64,000 nt of DNA from a bacterium (GTDB lineage Bacteria; UBA8248). The stretch's first letter is position 1; each line of letters starts with the position of its first letter. The DNA is taken from NCBI GenBank assembly GCA_965204535.1, contig CBDBEV010000001.1:1376001-1440000 (forward strand). Direction: 5' to 3'. Positions 12,061 to 62,193 of this stretch are shown one piece after another. Both the position numbers and the translations under genes were made by a program. The notes below the pieces were generated by a model, which saw only the letters and a list, made by a program, of their open reading frames with translations, did not search any database and was not told the DNA's origin.

Positions 12061-14631
12061 CTAGCGAGCCGCTTCTTCTACCGTTACCCGAGGGCTGCTG
12101 AGAAGTATTTCCGTTCGACGATTTTTGGCGCGGCCCTCTTCGGTGTCGTTTTTCGCCACCGGGCGGTAAAATGAGTAGCCGGTCGCCGACATGCGTTCAG
12201 GCGATATGTTTTTCGATTCCAGGAACTTGACGATGGCGATAGCGCGCGCGAACGATAGTTCCCAATTCGAAGGATAGCGTCTGAGCAGATTGCCTCTGAT
12301 GGGCCGATTATCCGTATGTCCTTCTACCTGTATTATTTTGTCTTTTTGTTTTCCGAGAAATTCCGCAATCTTAGAGAGCGCCTCGCTTCCCTTTTCCCTG
12401 ATCCTGGCGCTTCCCAGATCAAACAAAAGATTGTTCACGAAGGTCACGCGGAGCAAGTCTTCAGTTCTTCGCAGCGTGATGGATTGTTCCTGTAGCTTGC
12501 TGTCCATCTTCTTCAGGTCTGATTCCAGTTGCTTGGCCCGTTCGGCTTCTTCGCGTGCCCTTTTCTCCAGAACTTTAGAGCGTGCGATTGCCAGCGTGTG
12601 TTTTTTGATCGTTTCCGCCAGGCTCAGGTTTGTCTGATCCAGCTTGTTCCTGATGAGGTCGGCCACGGAGGTTTTCTCCGCGATGAGTTGGCTCATCTCT
12701 TGAACCTGCGCCCGGAGGAGTTCCCTGGCTTTTCCGAGACGGTTTGCCTCTTCGGCCCGCTTTCTTGCGAGTTCGGCGTTTCGGGTCTTTGCTTTTTCCG
12801 CCTCCGTGCGCGTCTTGCGTTCAGTATCGAGAGTTTTCCGGGTTTCTTCGAGCGCGAGTTCGAGGTTCTGGGTTTTGGTTCTTCCCTTTTCGATGGTGGC
12901 GTTTTTCTCCGAGATGAGTCGGCTCATCGCCTGAACCTGGGTATTGAGGATTTCCCTGGTTTTCTCGAGGCGCTTCATCTCCGCGGCCCGGTTTTGCGCG
13001 AGTTCGGTTTTTTGCGCGGTTGATTTCTCGGCCTTAGCCGGCGCCTTGCGCTGACTGGCGACGCTGCGTTTTTTCGCCCTTGCCTGCTCGTCCTTGATGA
13101 GTTGCCCCATCTTTCGGGCCTGGGTCTCGAGAATCTTTCTGACTTGTTCGAGGCGCTTTATCTCTGCGGCCCGTTTTTGGGCGAGTTCGGTGGTATCTTT
13201 ATTTGATTTCTCAACCTTCACCCTTATCTTGCGCTCGGTTTCGAGGGCCGCCTGGATTTGCTTGAGCGCGCGCTCGAGACTTTGGGTTTTTGATTTTTCC
13301 TGTTCGATGTCGGCGCTCTTCTTCGCGATGAGTTGACGCATGATTCCAACCTGGGTCTCGAGGCGCTCTCTGGCTTTTTCGAGACGCTTTATCTCCACGG
13401 CCCGTTCGCTGGCGAGTTTGATGTTCTGCTGACTTGCTTTTTCGGCCTTGGCGCGCATCTTGCGCTCGGCATCGAGGGCCGCCTGGATTTGCTTGAGCTC
13501 GAGTTCGAGTTTTTGAGTTTTTGCTTTTTCCTGCTCGATGTCCGCGCTTTTCATCGCGATGAGTTGGCGCATCCTGCGGACTTGCGTCTGGAGAAGCTCC
13601 CTGACTTTTTCGAGACGCTTCATCTCCCGGGCGCGGGTGCTGGCGAGTTGGACGTTTTGCCGATTTGATTTTTCCATCTCGACCCGCATCTTGCGCTCGT
13701 TCTCGAGCGTGGTCTGGATTTGCCTGAGCGTGCGCTCGAGTTTTTGGGCCTTCGCTTTTTCCTGTTCGATGTCGGCGCTTTTCTCCGCGACGAGCTTGCT
13801 CATCTTTTGAGCCTGTGCCTCGAGTCCTTTTATCTCCTCGGCCCGCGCCTTACGCTCGTTTTCGAGAGTTGCCTCGATTTGCTTGAGCGTACGCTCGATA
13901 TTTTGATTCTTCACCGCCCCTTTCTCGATGTCGGCGCTTTTCTCGGCGATGAGTCGGCTCATCTTTTCAGCCTGGGTCACCAGGCGCTTTACCTCTTCGG
14001 CCCGATTCCCGGCGAGTTGTATGTTTTGTTGATTCGCTTGTTCTGCGTCGGCGCGCATCCTGCGCTCGTTATCGAGGGAGCCATGGATGATGTCGAGCGT
14101 GACTTTGAGGCTTCGGATTTGGGCTTTTCGCTGCTTGATGTCGGCGTTTTTCTCGGTGATGAGCCGGCTCATCTCTTTCGCTTGGGTCTCAAGGCGTTCT
14201 ATGTCTCCCGCCCTCTTGGCGGCGAGCTCGAGATTTTGCTGGTTTGATTTTTCCGTCTCGGCGCGCGTCTTGCGCTCGCTTTCGAGGGCGGTCTGGTTTT
14301 CCTGGAGCGCGGACTCAAGGCCTTGGATTTTCGCTTGGCCTTGCTCGATAGCGGCGTTTTTCTCGGTGACGCGCCTGTCCAGCTCTTCCATTTGTGTCTT
14401 GGCGGAGGCGACCTCTTTTGCGAGCCGGGATCCCAGACTCTTCATCTTCTGGTCTATGTCTTTGAAGCCCTGGATGTCGCTCTTGAGCTTGGCGGAATTC
14501 TCTTTTTCTTTTGAGAGTTCAGCTTCTCTTTGCTGCAGCAGCTCTTTTGTCGATTGGGATTGCTGGGCGAAATATCCTGTCCCGCCGAGCAGAACGGCGA
14601 TAATCGCCCCTATGGAGATGCGAAGCCCCAC
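12061..14631 (-). CDS. Membrane-anchored long coiled-coil repeat protein with a C-terminal OmpA/MotB peptidoglycan-binding domain
   Basis: N-terminal hydrophobic helix; about eight EKxAxIE repeats; C-terminal LFDLGSA, VEGHTDN, SNWELSFARA and NRRTEI. Confidence 0.88.
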   Translation of the reverse strand: MGLRISIGAIIAVLLGGTGYFAQQSQSTKELLQQREAELSKEKENSAKLKSDIQGFKDIDQKMKSLGSRLAKEVASAKTQMEELDRRVTEKNAAIEQGQAKIQGLESALQENQTALESERKTRAETEKSNQQNLELAAKRAGDIERLETQAKEMSRLITEKNADIKQRKAQIRSLKVTLDIIHGSLDNERRMRADAEQANQQNIQLAGNRAEEVKRLVTQAEKMSRLIAEKSADIEKGAVKNQNIERTLKQIEATLENERKARAEEIKGLEAQAQKMSKLVAEKSADIEQEKAKAQKLERTLRQIQTTLENERKMRVEMEKSNRQNVQLASTRAREMKRLEKVRELLQTQVRRMRQLIAMKSADIEQEKAKTQKLELELKQIQAALDAERKMRAKAEKASQQNIKLASERAVEIKRLEKARERLETQVGIMRQLIAKKSADIEQEKSKTQSLERALKQIQAALETERKIRVKVEKSNKDTTELAQKRAAEIKRLEQVRKILETQARKMGQLIKDEQARAKKRSVASQRKAPAKAEKSTAQKTELAQNRAAEMKRLEKTREILNTQVQAMSRLISEKNATIEKGRTKTQNLELALEETRKTLDTERKTRTEAEKAKTRNAELARKRAEEANRLGKARELLRAQVQEMSQLIAEKTSVADLIRNKLDQTNLSLAETIKKHTLAIARSKVLEKRAREEAERAKQLESDLKKMDSKLQEQSITLRRTEDLLRVTFVNNLLFDLGSARIREKGSEALSKIAEFLGKQKDKIIQVEGHTDNRPIRGNLLRRYPSNWELSFARAIAIVKFLESKNISPERMSATGYSFYRPVAKNDTEEGRAKNRRTEILLSSPRVTVEEAAR

Positions 14632-31393: not shown

Positions 31394-31560
31394 GTTGGGA
31401 ATGAAATCTTTCAGTTGACGACCCCTTTTTGCCTGTCGATTCATCACCCTTTCTTCAAAACCGATTTTTCCTGCATAGGTTTTCCCGCTCTCGCGTTGAG
31501 GGGTTGTTGAAAAAGCTCCTGATTTCGTGATTCGGCGTATGTAGCCAACCGGGGAGGGGG

Positions 31561-32005: not shown

Positions 32006-33518
32006 GGGCCTGTTGAAAAACCCCTGGTTTTGTGATCGTATGGATGTATCCCCCCTCGCCCGAGATGGGAGATTCCCCGATGTTGGACCGCAAGAGGCGC
32101 GGGCAGATGGAATTGTTCGTGGCCGGTTCGCTGGAGCAGTTGATTCCCGAAGATTACATATTGTTCCGGGTGAACCGCGTACTGGATTTGAGCTGGCTGC
32201 GCGAGGAGGTGGCGGAGTGTTATTGCGCGGACAACGGTCGACCGGGGATCGACCCCGAAGTGGTGGTTCGGTTGATGCTGGCGGGCCTGCTGCTGGGCCA
32301 CGTGCACGACCGGCATCTGCTTCGCGAGGCGCAGGTGAACCTGGCGATCCGGTGGTTCATCGGTTACGAGCTGCACGAGGAGTTGCCGGATCATTCGAGC
32401 CTGACGCGGATTCGCCAGCGGTGGGGGGAGGCGCGGTTCAAGGAGATATTGCGCCGCACGGTTCAGGCGTGCCTGGAGGCGCAGGTGGCGAAGGGGGAAG
32501 TGGTTCACCTGGACGCGTCTTTGATACGCGCGGACGTGAGTTGGGAGAGTCTGGCGGCGCGCCACGCGGAGAAGGTGGTGCGGGAGAACGACTCGGCGGA
32601 TGAGACGGGGAAGAAGGGCGGCGGGGGTTCGGGGCCGGTGAGCCGAACGGACCCCGACGCGCGCCTGGCGCGCAAGAGCGCTCGGGCGGGGTTCGAGCCG
32701 AGCTACAAGCACCACGCGGTGGTGGACGATGAGCGGGGGGTGGTTCTCGACGTAGAGGTGACGGAGGGGACGTTGAACGAGCGGGAGATGATGGAGCCGC
32801 AGTTGGATGCGGTTTGCGAGCTCACGGGTCGCGCGCCCGCGGTGGTGACGGCGGATTCGGGCTATGCGTACTCGAAGGTGTACGGCGCATTGGAGCGGCG
32901 TGGCGTCGCCGCGGTGATTCCGGCGAAGAAGGAGCCTTCCCAGAGCCGTGTTCCGCTGCAGTTGTTCCGCTACGACGAGCGGCACAAGGTGGTGAAGTGT
33001 CCGGGCGGCAAGACGCTGCGCCCCCGGAAGGAGACGGAGCGGGGGCGCTACTATGGTTCGAGGACGCGCGATTGCGCGGGCTGCGCGCTGAGGTCGGATT
33101 GTCTTCCCAAGTCGCACACGAGCAGGACGGTGCTGGTTCCGCATGAGTATCCGGCGCTGTTGCGCGCGCGTCGGCGGCACGCGCGCCGGGGGGAGGAGGA
33201 GGGCCGGCTGTGGCGCCGCCACATGTCGCGTTCGGAGGGCTACCACGGCGAAGCGAAGAGTCGGCACGGACTGGCGCGGGCGGTGCGCCGGGGCCTTGCG
33301 AACATGAGGATCCAGGCCTACCTGACGGCGACTGCGGTGAACCTCAAGCGGCTCGCCGCCGCTGTTGCGGCGCGTTTATTCGCGCTCTGGAGGGCCTGGG
33401 CCGCCCGGAGACGCCGTCTGCGCGTTCCTCGCGGCCTCACGCGCCGATTGGGCTTCCTCTCCGCCGCTGCGTGAGCCGCCATACCTCCCGCTTCAAAACG
33501 GGGTTTTTCAACAGCCCC
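32006..33518 (+). mobile_element. IS1182-family insertion sequence, copy 1 (1513 bp)
   Basis: Terminal IRs GGGCCTGTTGAAAAA and TTTTTCAACAGCCCC; 5-bp direct repeat TTGTC at 32001-32005 and 33519-33523. Confidence 0.92.
32080..33474 (+). CDS. IS1182-family DDE transposase
   Basis: GRPGIDP, LPDHSSLTRIRQRWG, HLDAS, TDPDA, TADSGY and NLKRL; start set at ATG 32080. Confidence 0.92.
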   Translation: MLDRKRRGQMELFVAGSLEQLIPEDYILFRVNRVLDLSWLREEVAECYCADNGRPGIDPEVVVRLMLAGLLLGHVHDRHLLREAQVNLAIRWFIGYELHEELPDHSSLTRIRQRWGEARFKEILRRTVQACLEAQVAKGEVVHLDASLIRADVSWESLAARHAEKVVRENDSADETGKKGGGGSGPVSRTDPDARLARKSARAGFEPSYKHHAVVDDERGVVLDVEVTEGTLNEREMMEPQLDAVCELTGRAPAVVTADSGYAYSKVYGALERRGVAAVIPAKKEPSQSRVPLQLFRYDERHKVVKCPGGKTLRPRKETERGRYYGSRTRDCAGCALRSDCLPKSHTSRTVLVPHEYPALLRARRRHARRGEEEGRLWRRHMSRSEGYHGEAKSRHGLARAVRRGLANMRIQAYLTATAVNLKRLAAAVAARLFALWRAWAARRRRLRVPRGLTRRLGFLSAAA

Positions 33519-55385: not shown

Positions 55386-56901
55386 GGGGCTGTTGAAAAA
55401 CCCCTGGTTTTGTGATCGTATGGATGTATTCCCCCTCGCCCGAGATGGGAGTTCCGGAGATGTTGGACCGCAAGAGGCGCGAGCAGATGGACTTGTTCGT
55501 GGCCGGCCCGCTGGAGAAGTTGATTCCCGAAGATCACATATTGCGCCAGGTGGACCGCGTACTGGATTTGAGTTGGCTTCGCGAGGAAGTGGCGGAGTGC
55601 TATTGCGCGGACAACGGTCGACCGGGGATCGACCCGGAAGTGGTGATCCGGTTGATGCTGGCGGGCCTGCTGCTGGGCTACGCGGAGGATCGCCGCCTGC
55701 TGCGCGAGGCGCAGGCGCATCTGGCGGTCCGGTGGTTCATCGGGTACAGGCTGGACGAGGATTTGCCGGATCATTCGAGCCTGACGCGTATCCGTCAACG
55801 CTGGGGGGAGGAGCGGTTCAAGGAGATATTTCGGCGCACGGTTCAGTCTTGCGTGGAGGCGAAGGTGGCGAAGGGAGAAGTGGTTCACATGGACGCGTCT
55901 TTGATACGCGCGGACGTGAGCTGGGAGAGTCTGGCGGAGCGCCACGCGGAGAAGGTGGTGCGGGAGAACGACTCGGAGGATGAGACGGGGAAGAAGGGCG
56001 GCGGCGGGGGTTCGGGTCCGGTGAGCCGAACGGACCCCGACGCGCGCCTGGCGCGCAAGAGCGCTCGGGCGGGGTTCGAGCCGAGCTATAAGCACCACGC
56101 GGTGGTGGACGACGAGCGTGGGGTGGTTCTCGACGTAGAGGTGACGGAGGGGACGTTGAACGAGCGGGAGATGATGGAGCCGCAGTTGGATGCGGTTTGC
56201 GAGCTCACGGGTCGCGCGCCCGCGGTGGTGACGGCGGATAGTGGTTATGCGTATTCGAAGGTGTACGGCGCATTGGAGCGTCGGGGGGTCGCCGCGCTGA
56301 TACCGGCGAAGAAGGAACCCACCCAGAGCCGGGTGCCGTTGCAACTGTTCCGCTACGACGAGCGGAATGAGGTGGTGAAGTGTCCGGGGGGCAAGACGCT
56401 GCGCCCCCGGAAGGAGACGGAGCGGGGGCGCTGGTATGTATCGAGGACCCGCGATTGCGCGGGTTGCGCGCTCAAGGCCGATTGTCTGTCGGCGTCTCGC
56501 ACGAGCAGGGCGGTTCTGATTCCGCACGAGTATCCGGCGCTGTTGCGCGCGCGCCGTCGCCACGCGCGCCGGGGGGAGGAGGAGGGCCGGCTGTGGCGCC
56601 GCCACATGTCGCGTTCGGAGGGCTATCACGGCGAGGCGAAGAGTCGGCACGGACTGGCGCGGGCGGTACGCCGGGGTCTTGCGAACGTGAAGATCCAGGC
56701 CTACCTGACGGCGACTGCGGTGAACCTCAAGCGGCTCGCCGCCGCTGTGGCCGCGGGTTTATTCGCTCTGTGGCGGGCCTGGGCCGCCCGGAAACGCCGA
56801 ATGAGCGCATATCGCGGCCTCACGCGCCGATTGGGCTTCCTCTCCCAGGCCGCGTGAGCCGCCATACATCCCGCTTCAAAACGAGGTTTTTCAACAGCCC
56901 C
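55386..56901 (+). mobile_element. IS1182-family insertion sequence, copy 2 (1516 bp)
   Basis: Perfect 15-bp IR GGGGCTGTTGAAAAA; 5-bp direct repeat CTCAA at 55381-55385 and 56902-56906. Confidence 0.93.
55460..56857 (+). CDS. IS1182-family DDE transposase
   Basis: Close paralog of 32080-33474 with one extra Gly codon. Confidence 0.92.
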   Translation: MLDRKRREQMDLFVAGPLEKLIPEDHILRQVDRVLDLSWLREEVAECYCADNGRPGIDPEVVIRLMLAGLLLGYAEDRRLLREAQAHLAVRWFIGYRLDEDLPDHSSLTRIRQRWGEERFKEIFRRTVQSCVEAKVAKGEVVHMDASLIRADVSWESLAERHAEKVVRENDSEDETGKKGGGGGSGPVSRTDPDARLARKSARAGFEPSYKHHAVVDDERGVVLDVEVTEGTLNEREMMEPQLDAVCELTGRAPAVVTADSGYAYSKVYGALERRGVAALIPAKKEPTQSRVPLQLFRYDERNEVVKCPGGKTLRPRKETERGRWYVSRTRDCAGCALKADCLSASRTSRAVLIPHEYPALLRARRRHARRGEEEGRLWRRHMSRSEGYHGEAKSRHGLARAVRRGLANVKIQAYLTATAVNLKRLAAAVAAGLFALWRAWAARKRRMSAYRGLTRRLGFLSQAA

Positions 56902-57076
56902 CTCAAGGGGGGAGTGAATGGCAATCTCAAGGGAAGAGTGAATCCCGACCTTCTGGATTATTCACCGTAGGGACAGGTCGCGACCTCGGACAGGCCCCTG
57001 TGCCTGTCCGTTACAGATGCGATGCGGTTTTGATCGTCATGACGGCGGTGGTCAATTCCGAGCAGGGAGGGCTTTT

Positions 57077-57475
57077 TCAACAATCCCCGCCGGAAAGGGG
57101 CTTGCTGACTTCGATCAAGAACCCGTTCGGGTCCTTCAGCATGAACATGCGCACGCCCCAGGGGGCGTCGAGTGGCGGGAAAACGGTTTCCGCGCCTTTT
57201 TCCACGAGGACATCATAGGCGCGGTCCACGTCCTCGGGCGAGAGCGTGACGACGACGCCCGAGCCCCTGGGTTCCCGGAGAGGTTCGAGATTCCACTTGC
57301 GCATCTCCTCATCCGGAATCGGCGCGTGGATGACGAGCGAGGTTCCTCCCACGTCATATCGCACGTGTTGTTTCTCCCGGCTCGCTTCTTTCAGTCCCAG
57401 CGTTTCGGTATAAAAACGACACGACGCCTCGTAGTCTTTGGTGATGAGAAAAACGGCGGGCAGCGATTCGAACAA
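57077..57475 (-). CDS. VOC/glyoxalase family protein
   Basis: FYTETLGL, PWGVR and KDPNGFLIEV; the stop codon lies inside an IS-like inverted repeat. Confidence 0.88.
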   Translation of the reverse strand: MFESLPAVFLITKDYEASCRFYTETLGLKEASREKQHVRYDVGGTSLVIHAPIPDEEMRKWNLEPLREPRGSGVVVTLSPEDVDRAYDVLVEKGAETVFPPLDAPWGVRMFMLKDPNGFLIEVSKPLSGGDC

Positions 57476-57519
57476 TTCAGACTCCTTGCAGTTCTTATGC
57501 GCTCGTTTGGAGAAAAGGA

Positions 57520-58203
57520 ATGCCCCATCCCCTGGTCGAGCTGAAAGAAGTATCCAAAACCTACGTTGCGGGCGACGTGCTCATCCACGCGCTCAAAGAC
57601 GTGAACTTCCGGGCGGAACAGGGCGAGTTTATCACGGTTTCGGGCCCGAGCGGCTCGGGCAAGAGCACGTTTCTGCACCTGATGGGCGCGGTCGATGCGC
57701 CCTCGAGCGGCGAGGTGTTTCTGGGCGGACGCGAAATATCGCGCCTGAGTGATGAGGGCCTGAGCGAAATTCGCCGCAAAGAGGTGGGCTTCATCCATCA
57801 GTTCTTTCACCTCATGCCGACGATGACGGCTTATGAAAACGTCGCCCTGCCGCTCCTGCTTCAGGGCCGGAAGCGCGCCGAGATCAAGGAGATGGCCGAA
57901 AACGCCCTGGCGCGCGTGGGGCTTGAGAACCGGATGCGGAGCTTCCCGAGGCAACTCTCGGGCGGCGAGATGCAGCGCGTGGCCGTTGCGCGCGCCGTCA
58001 TCCACAAACCCCGTCTCATCCTCGCCGATGAGCCGACGGGAAACCTCGATTCCGAAAACTCGCAAAATGTCCTGGAACTCGTCGCAGAACTCCACAAAGA
58101 AGATGGTTTTACGGTCGTCATGGCGACGCACGACCAGATGCCCATACGCTACGCCACCCGAAAAGTCGGTATCACCGATGGCCGTCTGGAGGAGGGTTGT
58201 TGA
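57520..58203 (+). CDS. ABC transporter ATP-binding protein (LolD/MacB type)
   Basis: [29 protein letters not shown] and ATHD. Confidence 0.95.
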
Positions 58204-58474
58204 AAAAGACCTGGCTTCGTGATTCGGTGTATGTAATCGACCGGGGAGGGAATATGTACCCACCCGCGTTTGGTGGCGTAGGGGCGGCCCCCCGTGGCCG
58301 CCCGTATCGAAGATGTCTACCCTCGTGGTTGTCCTGCATCAGGACAGGCACGGGGGCCTGTCCCTGCGGTGTACAATTCGATGATCGGGATGCCCTCCCC
58401 AAAAGGGGTTGTTGCCTTTCCAATCGAGAGTGTTCACCGTCATTCCGGGCGAGAAGGGGTTTTTCAACAACCCC
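58193..58474 (+). mobile_element. 282-bp MITE with IS1182-like ends and a 5-bp target duplication
   Basis: Ends AGGGTTGTTGAAAAA and TTTTTCAACAACCCC flanked by GGAGG (58188-58192 and 58475-58479); internal REP doublet 58277-58366. Confidence 0.9.
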
Positions 58475-58489
58475 GGAGGCGGCGGGCTG

Positions 58490-61084
58490 ATGAGCCTCAC
58501 CTGTTCCCTCTTGCGTCTTCTCGCCTGGCGGCGCCTCAAGGAAGAGCCGTTTCGCCTGTTGCTCACTTTAGTAGGGGTGGCCCTGGGCGTCGCCGTGTTC
58601 ATCGCCGTCAAGATGGCGAACGAGACTTCCATCCGGGCATTCGAGAATAGTTTGGTCGCCATCTCGGGCAAGACGCAACTGGAAGTCTCCGCGGGCGGTC
58701 TGGGCGTGGATGAAAATCTCATCTTGAGGCTCCGGGCGATGCGGGAGGTGAAAAGGGCGGCGCCTGTCATTCAGCACCACGTCTGGATAAGAAAGGCGGA
58801 TGGCTCAGGGGCCAAATGGCGGCGCGGCGCCCCTTCGCAAGGACGCGCCGTCCTGGCCCTGGGCCTCGATTTGCTGGGGGACAACGATTTCAGGGGCTAT
58901 GAGTTCGAAAATAAGTATTCGCGCGAGGAAATTCTCTCGCGCATCGCCGACCCGCAGGGTCTGTTCATCGCCCGGGGGGTGGCGGATGCGCTGGGCGTCG
59001 GGCGGGGCGATTTCATCGAGGTCGAAGCCGCGCGAAGAATGCGCTTTCGCGTCCAGGGCGTCCTGAAGCCGGAAGGCATGGCGAAATCGATGGACGGCCG
59101 TCTCCTCGTCATGGACATCGGCGTCGCGCAAGAGGTGTTCGAGCGTTTCGGCCGTCTGGACAGGATCGATCTGATTCTCGAAGGTGAAGGCGAAATCGAA
59201 TCGATCCGCGAAAAAATCCGGCGCATTCTACCGCCCGGCGTAGTGGTTGATCGGCCCGCGCGGCGCGGACGCGACGTGGAGAAAATGCTGGCGTCGTTCC
59301 AACTCAATCTCACCGTGCTGAGCGTCATCGCGCTGCTGGTGGGTTGTTTTCTGATCTACAACACGATGTCGGCCTCGGTCTTGCGGCGAAGAGGCGAAAT
59401 CGCCACCCTGCGCTCACTCGGCATGACGGCGAGAGGAATCGTCTTCCTCTACGGGGCGGAGGCGCTTTGCATCGGTCTGGCGGGTTCAGGTCTTGGCGTT
59501 GCGACGGGGGCCTTCATGGCCCAGGGCGCGCTATCGTTCATCTCCCAGACGATCAGGAACCTCTACGCATTTCTGGAGGTGCGGCACGTTTTCTTCGGAG
59601 CGGCGGAGCTTCTTTGGGGATTCGGCGTAGGACTGGCCGTCGCTCTCGTATCGGGTCTTTTCCCGGCGATCGCGGCCTCGCGCCAGAGTCCCCACCAGGG
59701 CATTGTGGAGAGGCGGGGAATCGTGGAGGTGCGTCCCAAAGTTATTGCCGTTTTGATTGCAGGCGCCTTGATCACCGCTCTCTTCGCCTACTGGCTGAAT
59801 CTCCAGGCACTGGCGGGGGGAACCCCCTTACCCGGCTATCTCTCGGCGGCGGCGGTCATCCTGGCCGCCGCGCTCGCGAGTCTGCCGGTCGTCTTGTTTG
59901 GTTCGATCATCATCCGGCGGGTGCTGGGCGGCGTCTTGAAAGCCTGGCTCGCCGCGCACGGTCTGGGCAGGCATCCGCATCGAAACGCGGTCACGCTCTC
60001 CTCACTGGCCATCGCCGTGGCCATGCTGGTGAGCCTCATCATCATGATCGAGAGTTTCCGCGCCACGGTGGAAATCTGGACGCATCAGACGCTGAGAGCC
60101 GACTTCTACGCCGCGCCCGCATCGCGCTTCATCAAGGGTTCGAAGGCGAGCATTTCAGAAGACGCGATCCAGGCCATCGGCGGCGTTTCAGGCGTCGCGG
60201 CGGTCGGTGGCTTCCGGGCCGTTCGCCTGCCCTGGCGCGGGGAGCGCATCACGCTTGCGGGCGGTGATTTTCGCATTGAGGCCGAAAGGGGCAGGCGGTT
60301 GTTCCTGGAGGGCGACTCGAAAGAAACGATCACGAGGGCGAGGACGCGCGGCGAGGCGATAATCACCGAGACGTTCTCGAACTTCTACGGTGTCAAGAAA
60401 GGAGACCTCCTGCGCCTCCCTGCTCCGGGGGGCGAGGTCGCGGTGCGCATTGCGGGCGTGTATTACGATTACACTACGGACGGCGGGTTCGTCGTAGTGG
60501 ATCGCGAATTCCTGAAAAGACACTGGGGGGATGATCGCTTAAGCGCCCTGGCGATATATCTCACGGAAAACGCGCGACCCGACGCGGTGCGTAAATCGCT
60601 CGAAGAAGTTCTTGATCCCACCATGGTGCTCATCTCCAACAGGGGTCTCAAAAAGCGCGTATCGAACATCTTCGATCAGACGTTCGCCATCACCTATGCG
60701 CTGGAGTTCATCGCCGTTCTGGTGGCCCTGCTCGGCGTGGCCACGGGGCTGAGTTCGAACATACTGGAGCGCGTTCACGAAATCGGCGCGCTGCGCGCCA
60801 TGGGTTTGAACCGCAAGGGAATCATCAGCGCCATCATGGGGGAGGCGGTCATTCTGGGCGTACTCTCGGTTTTGGTCGGCCTTGCGGCGGGCGTGTGTCT
60901 GGCGGCCATCCTGATCTTCGTCGTCAACAAGCTCAGTTTCGGCTGGACGATCCAGTATATCTTCGCCTGGAAGGCGATGGCGGCTTATCTTCTCGTCGTG
61001 GTTCTCGCCTCGCTGGCGGCGAGTTGGCTTCCCGCGAGGGCAGCGGCGGGCATCCCCATTCGGGAGGCGTTGAGCGAGGAATGA
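58490..61084 (+). CDS. FtsX/MacB-like ABC permease with two permease modules
   Basis: GVALGVAV, RRGEIATLRSLGM and HEIGALRAMGL; ATG 58490 after GGAGG. Confidence 0.92.
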   Translation: MSLTCSLLRLLAWRRLKEEPFRLLLTLVGVALGVAVFIAVKMANETSIRAFENSLVAISGKTQLEVSAGGLGVDENLILRLRAMREVKRAAPVIQHHVWIRKADGSGAKWRRGAPSQGRAVLALGLDLLGDNDFRGYEFENKYSREEILSRIADPQGLFIARGVADALGVGRGDFIEVEAARRMRFRVQGVLKPEGMAKSMDGRLLVMDIGVAQEVFERFGRLDRIDLILEGEGEIESIREKIRRILPPGVVVDRPARRGRDVEKMLASFQLNLTVLSVIALLVGCFLIYNTMSASVLRRRGEIATLRSLGMTARGIVFLYGAEALCIGLAGSGLGVATGAFMAQGALSFISQTIRNLYAFLEVRHVFFGAAELLWGFGVGLAVALVSGLFPAIAASRQSPHQGIVERRGIVEVRPKVIAVLIAGALITALFAYWLNLQALAGGTPLPGYLSAAAVILAAALASLPVVLFGSIIIRRVLGGVLKAWLAAHGLGRHPHRNAVTLSSLAIAVAMLVSLIIMIESFRATVEIWTHQTLRADFYAAPASRFIKGSKASISEDAIQAIGGVSGVAAVGGFRAVRLPWRGERITLAGGDFRIEAERGRRLFLEGDSKETITRARTRGEAIITETFSNFYGVKKGDLLRLPAPGGEVAVRIAGVYYDYTTDGGFVVVDREFLKRHWGDDRLSALAIYLTENARPDAVRKSLEEVLDPTMVLISNRGLKKRVSNIFDQTFAITYALEFIAVLVALLGVATGLSSNILERVHEIGALRAMGLNRKGIISAIMGEAVILGVLSVLVGLAAGVCLAAILIFVVNKLSFGWTIQYIFAWKAMAAYLLVVVLASLAASWLPARAAAGIPIREALSEE

Positions 61085-62193
61085 AGAAACTTATTCCATC
61101 TCTTCTGGCCGCCGTCATCATCCTGGGCGCAGCGCCCGCGCATCCCGCAAACTGGCGGCAGGCGCTGCCCGGCTATCGCTACCAGTTTCCCAGAGACAAC
61201 GGCGCGCACCAGGCGTTCCGCACGGAGTGGTGGTATTTCTCGGGAAATTTGCAGGATGCCGAGGGCGGGAAATACCCCTTCATGCTCACGTTTTTCAGGG
61301 TGGGGCTTCGTCCGGGAGTGCCCCGGAAGTCGAAAAGCCGCTGGGCGCTCCGGAATCTCTATTTCGGGCATTTCTCGGTTCTTGACGCGAAGCGGAAGAA
61401 ACACCGGTTTTCGGAGCGAATCAGCCGGGGCGAACTCGATCAGGCGGGCGCGTCGGAGAAGGGTCTCAAAGTCTGGCTGCGCGACTGGCGCGCCGAAAGC
61501 ACGGGCGGGGAAGGCGAATCTTCGTTCCGTATAAGCGCGGCGGCGCCCGAGATGAAGCTGCGCCTCGATCTGAAGCCCGCGAAACCCCTCGTGATTCACG
61601 GCGAGGACGGAGTGAGCCGGAAGGCGCCGGGTCCCGGACGCTCCTCTCACTATTATTCGTATACGCGGCTTCTCGCATCGGGCGTCCTCGAATTGGAAGG
61701 AAGGAAGATTGAGGTGCATGGAACGGCGTGGATGGACCATGAGTTCGGCTCGAACCAGTTGACGAAGGATCAGGTGGGGTGGGACTGGCTGAGCCTCCAG
61801 TTGTCCGACGGCCGCGATTTGATGTTATATCTCATGAGACGAAAAGACGGGAGCGTGGAGCCCACGAGCAGCGGCACGCTGGTGGAGGCGGACGGCAGCG
61901 CACGGCATCTGCGCCTCGGGGATTTCCGCTTTCAGGGCACGGGTAGCTGGAAGAGCGAGCGAAGCGGCGCCGTCTATCCCATGGGATGGGAAGTCGAGGT
62001 TCCGGCGCACGGCCTTCGCTTGCGGTTGGAGCCTTACGCCCGCGCGCAGGAGATAGAGTCCAAGGGCAGCACGGGCATCACCTATTGGGAAGGGGGTGTT
62101 TTCGCCGAAGGCGCCTCGGGCGAAAAAAAGCCCACGGGGGTGGGCTTTGTCGAGATGACGGGGTACGCTCCCGAGGGACGACCCAAATTCTGA
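61081..62193 (+). CDS. Secreted AttH/CrtC-like lipocalin-fold protein
   Basis: Signal peptide, TEWWYFSG, AWMDHEF, GWDW, YWEG and GFVEMTGY; ATGA overlap with the permease gene. Confidence 0.88.
   Translation: MKKLIPSLLAAVIILGAAPAHPANWRQALPGYRYQFPRDNGAHQAFRTEWWYFSGNLQDAEGGKYPFMLTFFRVGLRPGVPRKSKSRWALRNLYFGHFSVLDAKRKKHRFSERISRGELDQAGASEKGLKVWLRDWRAESTGGEGESSFRISAAAPEMKLRLDLKPAKPLVIHGEDGVSRKAPGPGRSSHYYSYTRLLASGVLELEGRKIEVHGTAWMDHEFGSNQLTKDQVGWDWLSLQLSDGRDLMLYLMRRKDGSVEPTSSGTLVEADGSARHLRLGDFRFQGTGSWKSERSGAVYPMGWEVEVPAHGLRLRLEPYARAQEIESKGSTGITYWEGGVFAEGASGEKKPTGVGFVEMTGYAPEGRPKF

Follow-up and report, generated by a model that had tools for sequence, protein, structure and literature searches.

A stop-free frame across an IS1182-ended insert between ABC ATPase and permease genes, probably kept as a ribosome relay

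The ATPase-permease junction and its insert

The junction analyzed here lies in a window of 64,000 nt from a bacterium of the UBA8248 lineage (GenBank assembly GCA_965204535.1, contig CBDBEV010000001.1, positions 1,376,001 to 1,440,000 of the forward strand), to which coordinates without another label refer. A gene for a LolD/MacB-like ATP-binding cassette (ABC) ATPase of 227 aa (57520..58203, + strand) is followed on the same strand by a gene for an FtsX/MacB-type ABC permease of 864 aa (58490..61084), and between them sits a composite MITE (miniature inverted-repeat transposable element) of 282 bp (58193..58474, no strand assigned) with ends of the IS1182 type. Selection probably keeps one frame across this insert free of stop codons, as a ribosome relay from the ATPase gene to the permease gene.

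The element ends are 15-nt inverted repeats (left, 58193..58207, +; right, 58460..58474, -), the left one with A in place of the terminal G, and the 5-bp target duplication, GGAGG, leaves one copy at each junction. The left copy (58188..58192, +) is Shine-Dalgarno-like, while the right copy (58475..58479, +) is the Shine-Dalgarno sequence (SD) of the permease, 10 nt 5' of its ATG. An earlier note, made from the letters of the window alone, had placed this element between these two copies, and our boundaries agree with it to the base. Deletion of the element and one GGAGG in silico gives an ATPase ending in LEAAG*, with the TGA overlapping the permease ATG (TGATG, 58488..58492, +), in place of the present LEEGC*, which is encoded by the left end. 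Both termini had been predicted correctly in the note, and its view that an insertion of IS1182 type duplicated an SD and rewrote the C-terminus of the ATPase is supported.

What the note overlooked is an open reading frame (ORF) of 96 codons plus stop that spans the element (58200..58490, +), hereafter the bridge. In the ATPase frame the left end reads TGT TGA, and a TTG (58200-58202) begins one base before and overlaps this stop (58201-58203). The left GGAGG lies 7 nt 5' of the TTG, the modal spacing of GGAGG among the called genes of the genome, whose 16S rRNA contains the anti-SD; an alternative TTG is found at 58197, also inside the left terminal repeat. The bridge thus runs from the TTGA overlap to the ancestral TGATG, in which the old ATPase stop now serves as the bridge stop and overlaps the permease ATG.

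The insert is predicted to fold as a single long RNA hairpin (z -4.2). Its interior includes a GTAG-tagged hairpin (58278..58303, no strand assigned) which, from its sequence, high copy number and fold, we take to be a repetitive extragenic palindrome (REP)-like element; a second REP-like hairpin (58342..58363, no strand assigned; repeat family D16, five copies in the window); and a truncated internal element end (58405..58414, +), a remnant of a nested or tandem element. Near the matching point a full internal end is present in two related genomes (G012, G013) and in a further locus, L050.

Empty and filled alleles in related genomes

From a list of 41 genomes, the 20 with fetched loci were scored. 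Six are empty and overlap-coupled (G022, ending in LEAAV*; G006, ending in LEAAR*; G004, G010, G009 and G019), and 14 are filled at the same base; the empty TGATG-coupled site that the earlier note had predicted for relatives was therefore found. In all 14 filled genomes the ATPase ends in GC* and the TTGA is present, the insert length ranges from 234 to 803 bp, and many pairs of alleles have no detectable common interior. Among 37 further loci, 18 repeat junctions already counted, 8 are missing one of the genes, 2 are new filled alleles (L049 and L050), and 9 are distant. Because 7 of these 9 are also overlap-coupled without an insert (two of them share one junction; the others are L056, with a short spacer, and L085, which is partial), the empty state is probably ancestral.

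Sequencing runs that contain related sequence are mostly sponge metagenomes. In two of them (X4 and X5, one sample) we found a contig joint that skips exactly 287 nt and has 5 shared letters (side 28, likeness 85-90; possibly from a related organism), while no empty joint was seen in the contigs of X1 or X2, the richest runs for the locus, contigs being prone to drop rare variants.

Internal element ends were found in 8 of 16 alleles (the 14 filled genomes with L049 and L050), and several alleles contain whole foreign elements. G012 differs from G013 and L050 by 81 nt, in frame, and the difference lies between two left ends; it is likely that the insert interiors were changed by nesting followed by deletion between repeated ends. 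The right terminal repeat is lost in G013, G020 and L049. In G012, G013 and L050 (loci L005, L008 and L050) an internal end reads as a left end at a position that should hold a right one, resembling an in-place inversion of about 20 nt.

The grouping of all filled alleles into a single clade was rejected both on rpoB (approximately unbiased test, p-AU 4e-10) and on the locus itself (2e-43), and a filled and an empty genome (G008 and G022) are sisters that differ mainly at the junction. Since the filled alleles do not form one clade, the junction has changed state more than once, whether by gain, by loss or by exchange, and the data fit repeated insertion as well as precise loss and the exchange of short tracts, with no preference for gain over loss. 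On the right flank, the leftover ATPase tails behind the insert fall into the classes EAAG and EEAD. G013 and the G021 group differ there at sites that seem to be synonymous, a hint that the filled alleles either originated on different empty backgrounds or recombined with them.

A frame that stays open while its sequence changes

The bridge frame is free of stops in 12 of the 14 filled genomes, and ends at +1 (8 alleles), +4 (1) or -3 (3) relative to the permease ATG; in the single +4 allele the old stop was lost and ATGA is used instead. The frame is closed in G013, where an 8-nt hairpin swap gives rise to a stop 90 nt early, and in G017 (60 nt early). L049 and L050 were found after the idea of an open frame had been noted: L050 is open and ends at +1, and with both included, 14 of 16 alleles stay open as far as the permease ATG (-3/+4 nt), L049 only after removal of an intron (see below). 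The proposal of the earlier note that the element separated two coupled genes is at odds with this frame, which leads from the ATPase stop to the permease start; the two genes were probably not uncoupled by the insert.

The bridge frame has 2 stops in 1821 codons, the two remaining sense frames have 48 and 53, and the antisense frames 39-46; open alleles number 12 of 14 in the bridge frame and 0-1 of 14 in each of the five others. In the genome as a whole, the three frames of the short elements have an equal stop density (2.2-2.5%), and 48 of 338 short-element orientations are open in the bridge frame, from which 0.9 open alleles would be expected among 14. One may ask whether the insertion did uncouple the genes, with the duplicated SD rescuing the permease and the open frame inherited by chance from one open ancestor. 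The site and the outer ends are indeed common to all filled alleles, GC-rich DNA has few stops, and 2 of 16 alleles are closed. Many pairs, however, share no detectable interior, and with shared sequence counted once, some 800 codons of the bridge frame are left, in which no more than 2 stops occur (an upper bound, since the count can miss a stop that another allele covers). The two remaining sense frames have 22-25 (Poisson about 1e-6), and 17-20 would be expected; the other frames of the same DNA have a normal stop density. Moreover, of the 8 bridge-frame columns at which most paralogues have a stop, 7 have lost it, in about 2-3 events; the corresponding losses elsewhere are 3 of 28 columns in one frame and 10 of 48 in the other. 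An example is the codon TGG at 58212..58214 (+) in the subterminal module. TGA is the commonest family reading here, with a stop at this codon in 14 of the 37 other copies of the motif, and the bridge-frame stop is lost in the focal element. Judged by the frame counts, the non-redundant codons and the stop loss, chance inheritance after uncoupling is largely refuted, and we give it very little credence.

It could also be proposed that the bridge peptide itself is a newborn functional small protein, and the pooled pN/pS ratio of 0.65 (30 synonymous and 56 non-synonymous differences), which is below 1, agrees with this; the ratio for the ATPase is 0.13. Pairwise ratios, obtained like the pooled one by a method without transition correction, scatter from 0.29 to 5.4. 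The bridges range from 71 to 268 aa and are unrelated in sequence, all of them score as non-coding (negative codon scores), and a search of the bridge ORF against NCBIfam matched no family. A functional protein is thus hardly credible, and the peptide is likely a by-product that is not conserved.

The allele L049 contains an 885-nt group II intron (Rfam RF02003, 56.7 bits; gathering threshold 49), located at L049:752-1636 in sense orientation inside the MITE interior. Its boundaries were set by comparison with intron-free alleles, and the exons join to intron-free sequence. The unspliced bridge frame has 21 codons before its stop; without the intron it is 71 codons long and ends at +1. A candidate complement of exon-binding site 1 (EBS1) is present, and splicing is predicted from the sequence. 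The intron is ORF-less (longest frame 94 codons, no intron-encoded protein) and gave no BLAST match in the genome of the window (G000), therefore any maturase would have to come from elsewhere.

Control junctions

Gene calls for the bridge codon scores, the co-directional gaps, the insertion sequence (IS) targets and the control junctions come from a rough codon-model caller made for this analysis. At three co-directional junctions that do not overlap when empty, none of 21 filled alleles has a bridge from start to start; the junctions contribute 5, 12 and 4 alleles with a detected end, after exclusion of two incomplete loci and three duplicates. At control locus A, with an ancestral gap of 12 nt, each of the 5 filled alleles is closed by stops in every one of the three frames, over 192-347 nt. 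At loci A and B the site likewise persists while the insert length changes. In G000, 1 of 141 element-bearing co-directional gaps combines a stop supplied by the element end with a bridge, and this one is the focal junction; a second match, at C1:418899, was rejected as it has an ATG start and 243 codons and is probably a gene missed by the rough caller. Because none of the 21 control alleles is bridged and only 1 of the 141 gaps has both features, the open frame is a property of the focal locus and not of the element, and neither these gaps nor the 48 of 338 open orientations show bridges to be a family trait. The relay would be imposed by the host locus and not be built into the element.

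The controls also bear on the possibility that the frame is kept only for ribosomes to cover the RNA and avoid Rho-dependent polarity or decay, with the permease started de novo at its own SD. Rho is encoded in the genome (TIGR00767, over the cut-off), the permease SD is retained, and in the two broken alleles the frame, with 56 and 62 codons, extends over the greater part of the insert, all of which would fit. At control locus A, on the other hand, where the genes are probably on one transcript, all five filled alleles are stopped in all three frames. In addition, the ends of the bridge are concentrated at -3, +1 and +4, and lengths of 1 mod 3 are absent from the inserts (0 of 14). We consider protection from Rho unlikely, if the most serious of the alternatives to a relay.

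A second SD-adjacent insertion was found at G000 C2:2797058-2797232 (L090-L112), in a 12-nt gap, with the same site filled in G000, G002, G016, G011 and G012 at different lengths; these genomes belong to two different clades of rpoB, so that alleles may have passed between species.

Predicted translation of the bridge

A gap of about 20 nt is reported to nearly abolish reinitiation (PMC10666635), and the extent to which reinitiation draws on an SD within the upstream ORF is reported to vary (PMC6728339). Since reinitiation reportedly fails beyond about 20 nt, a silent gap of 286 nt would be expected to break the coupling of the ATPase and permease genes. At the focal locus both the TTGA and the TGATG overlaps are present, each with a GGAGG, as in termination-reinitiation; dependence on upstream translation is predicted.

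Starting from the observed geometry, openness, interior turnover and stop loss, we infer the following course of events. The transposase of the cognate IS1182 would have acted in trans to insert an IS1182-ended MITE onto the SD of an overlap-coupled ATPase-permease junction; later elements would have nested into the insert, and deletions between repeated ends would have swapped its interior. Ribosomes that finish the ATPase at TTGA would start again on the junk ORF, open the hairpin as they translate it, and restart once more at the ATG of the permease. An allele with a broken frame would make less permease, and most such alleles would be removed by selection.

Relative to the ATPase, the bridge is read in the -1 frame, with an SD immediately upstream, an arrangement that would also suit entry by -1 frameshifting at the ATPase stop, yielding an ATPase with a long junk tail in place of reinitiation. 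A reading by eye places the run of A after the stop codon, with no slippery site seen before it, and we hold frameshifting to be very improbable.

Several observations weigh against the relay. The contigs of the one RNA run covered (X22) come from a relative and do not span the element. Two of the 16 alleles (G013 and G017) are broken, and reading on from their restart codons leads into the permease in the wrong frame. As a start codon TTG is weak (206 of 3401 genes as called by the rough caller), and the permease retains its own SD. At control locus B, 4 of 12 filled alleles have one stop-free frame, with no start at the upstream stop. The alleles are related and exchange DNA, so the counts overstate their independence. 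Finally, the predicted accessibility from SD to ATG is alike in filled (0.25), empty (0.28) and masked (0.27) sequences; occlusion of the SD was therefore rejected as the reason for a relay, and folding does not show a need for one.

We speculate further, at about even confidence, that the end sequence TGTTGA, with its stop overlapped by a start, and the duplicated SD could together form a lasting landing pad, at which MITEs, hairpins and even a self-splicing intron are absorbed or exchanged while the frame stays open. This would yield a selected, rewritten and translated ORF of 70-270 codons, a possible nursery for de novo proteins.

The element family and its cognate IS1182

An autonomous element of the IS1182 family with the same ends as the focal MITE lies upstream in the window (55386..56901, +; transposase ORF 55412-56857), flanked by a 5-bp duplication, CTCAA. 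Its transposase scores 348 bits against NF033551 (cut-off 270) and comprises the domains DUF772 and DDE_Tnp_1_6. A second full copy occurs at 32006..33518 (+; duplication TTGTC), and the genome holds 24 full IS-sized copies, 90-100% identical to the window IS. The duplication had been said to match that of the autonomous IS; this applies to the length of 5 bp and not to the sequence. The assignment of the ends to IS1182 is borne out by this cognate IS and by a second IS1182 family in the genome, whose ends are unrelated to the focal ones. That second family (G000 C1:743827-745215 and 13 further equal-scoring copies) has its end sequence repeated internally, close to the right end, and lies between GC-rich flanks whose direct repeats vary in length.

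The core of the focal ends occurs 413 times in the 4.56-Mb genome, compared with 0-39 times for nine control 10-mers. Searches allowing up to 2 mismatches found 678 ends genome-wide, forming 197 innermost pairs, of which 26 are IS-sized and 169 short. An exact 5-bp duplication flanks 39 of the 197 pairs (0-12 for other lengths, 4.8 for shuffled pairs), 23 of the short pairs (2.3 shuffled) and 16 of the 26 IS-sized pairs, or 20 of 26 with 1 nt of slack at the boundary. The targets of the cognate IS are mostly hairpin loops, CCCCC-N5-GGGG, resembling the joint of its own two ends; a preference for such loops would explain tandem and nested arrays. The subterminal motif ttcgtgattcgg (repeat family D8) is present near 31524 and 48543, as the earlier note had stated, and adjoins an element end 38 times genome-wide at up to 2 mismatches.

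The focal element shares its ends with the IS, encodes no transposase, is flanked by a 5-bp duplication and has empty orthologous sites, all as in a MITE, while as a whole it is not multi-copy: no second full-length copy of the 282-mer was found among 249 BLAST pieces in the genome, and it is a mosaic of pieces that occur near other element ends. The claim that it is the clearest sign of cassettes moving as units was accordingly not sustained, the element being a single-copy patchwork whose interior differs among species at the same site. Some short elements elsewhere in the genome have near-identical twins (93-99.7%) in different flanks, which supports unit movement for the family better than the focal element does. 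A gene-carrying cassette candidate with perfect GAGGA repeats (G000 C1:1142485-1143981) was rejected, as the enclosed gene adjoins the same left neighbour in relatives and is thus resident.

A search for a REP-associated tyrosine transposase (RAYT) found one partial match to PF01797 (Y1 transposase) in the genome (G000 C1:983551-983739, profile positions 60-121), although several REP-like hairpin families are abundant. Another end pair (L163, G000 C1:688754-690305) surrounds a low-complexity repeat ORF of 207 aa with several genomic paralogues, which sits between MITE modules related to the focal one.

Neighboring features in the window

The permease gene is followed by a third gene of the operon, encoding a CrtC/Lipocalin_9 protein (61081..62193, +) and overlapping the permease stop by 4 nt. 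A search for internal promoters found no sigma-70-like site in 57300-58700, and there is one weak terminator-like match at 58392-58409 (4 found, 1.5 expected). The Rfam search of the focal locus (L001) gave no match at E<=0.01. Divergent from the ATPase gene, with 44 nt between the listed starts, is a glyoxalase-family gene (57077-57475, -) that terminates beside a further element end near 57051-57088. Farther away, 12677-14406 contains tandem repeats of 159-231 nt (families D1-D3 and D7), probably a repeat protein on the minus strand.

Relation to known systems and significance

The closest precedent that turned up in a literature search on MITEs or IS1182 and coupling, in which subscription journals were largely missing, is the mycobacterial interspersed repetitive unit (MIRU). 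In published descriptions, MIRUs insert at start codons and bring an ORF of their own that is coupled at -4 (PMC12548453; PMC3184786). As at the focal locus, the accounts in these two sources have a mobile repeat on a stop/start junction, an ORF overlapping both neighbours, and downstream expression that is probably spared. By the same accounts MIRUs are about 40-100 bp long, with 4-nt repeats and a mycobacterial host, whereas the focal element has 282 bp (234-803 among alleles), a 5-bp duplication, IS1182 ends and Nitrospinota relatives; and the MIRU ORF is a trait of the family, whereas the focal frame has persisted at a single locus while interiors were replaced, stops lost and an intron inserted. 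The relay principle is thus already known from MIRUs, and the new part is the evolutionary demonstration.

Like other MITEs of IS1182 (NF033551), the focal element has the same 15-nt ends and 5-bp duplication as the 24-copy IS, and empty sites in relatives; it differs as a composite remnant of pieces of other elements and REP-like hairpins that is not a multi-copy unit. Its overlaps, -4 at the entry and -1 at the exit, the SD in the upstream ORF and the fact that the genes encode subunits of one complex resemble ATGA/TGATG termination-reinitiation as described in PMC6728339 and PMC10666635, whereas the focal locus chains two junctions through a non-functional ORF of transposon DNA. The Chunjie MITE of Geobacter uraniireducens is described in reviews as another MITE tolerated inside an operon, with no coupling bridge mentioned in those descriptions. 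Rickettsia palindromic elements (RPEs) are repeats that likewise keep frames open, but fuse in frame inside proteins (PMC10969869); the first part of section 4 of that MITE review describes in-frame fusions and no such coupling bridge.

The comparative evidence, with matched controls, indicates that selection can act on the openness of a frame rather than on the peptide, and that openness may decide which mobile DNA survives inside operons. It suggests how MITE-rich genomes tolerate insertions at coupled junctions, where the interior turns over and the ends persist, and it carries a warning for annotation: "non-coding" spacers between subunit genes may be translated relays.

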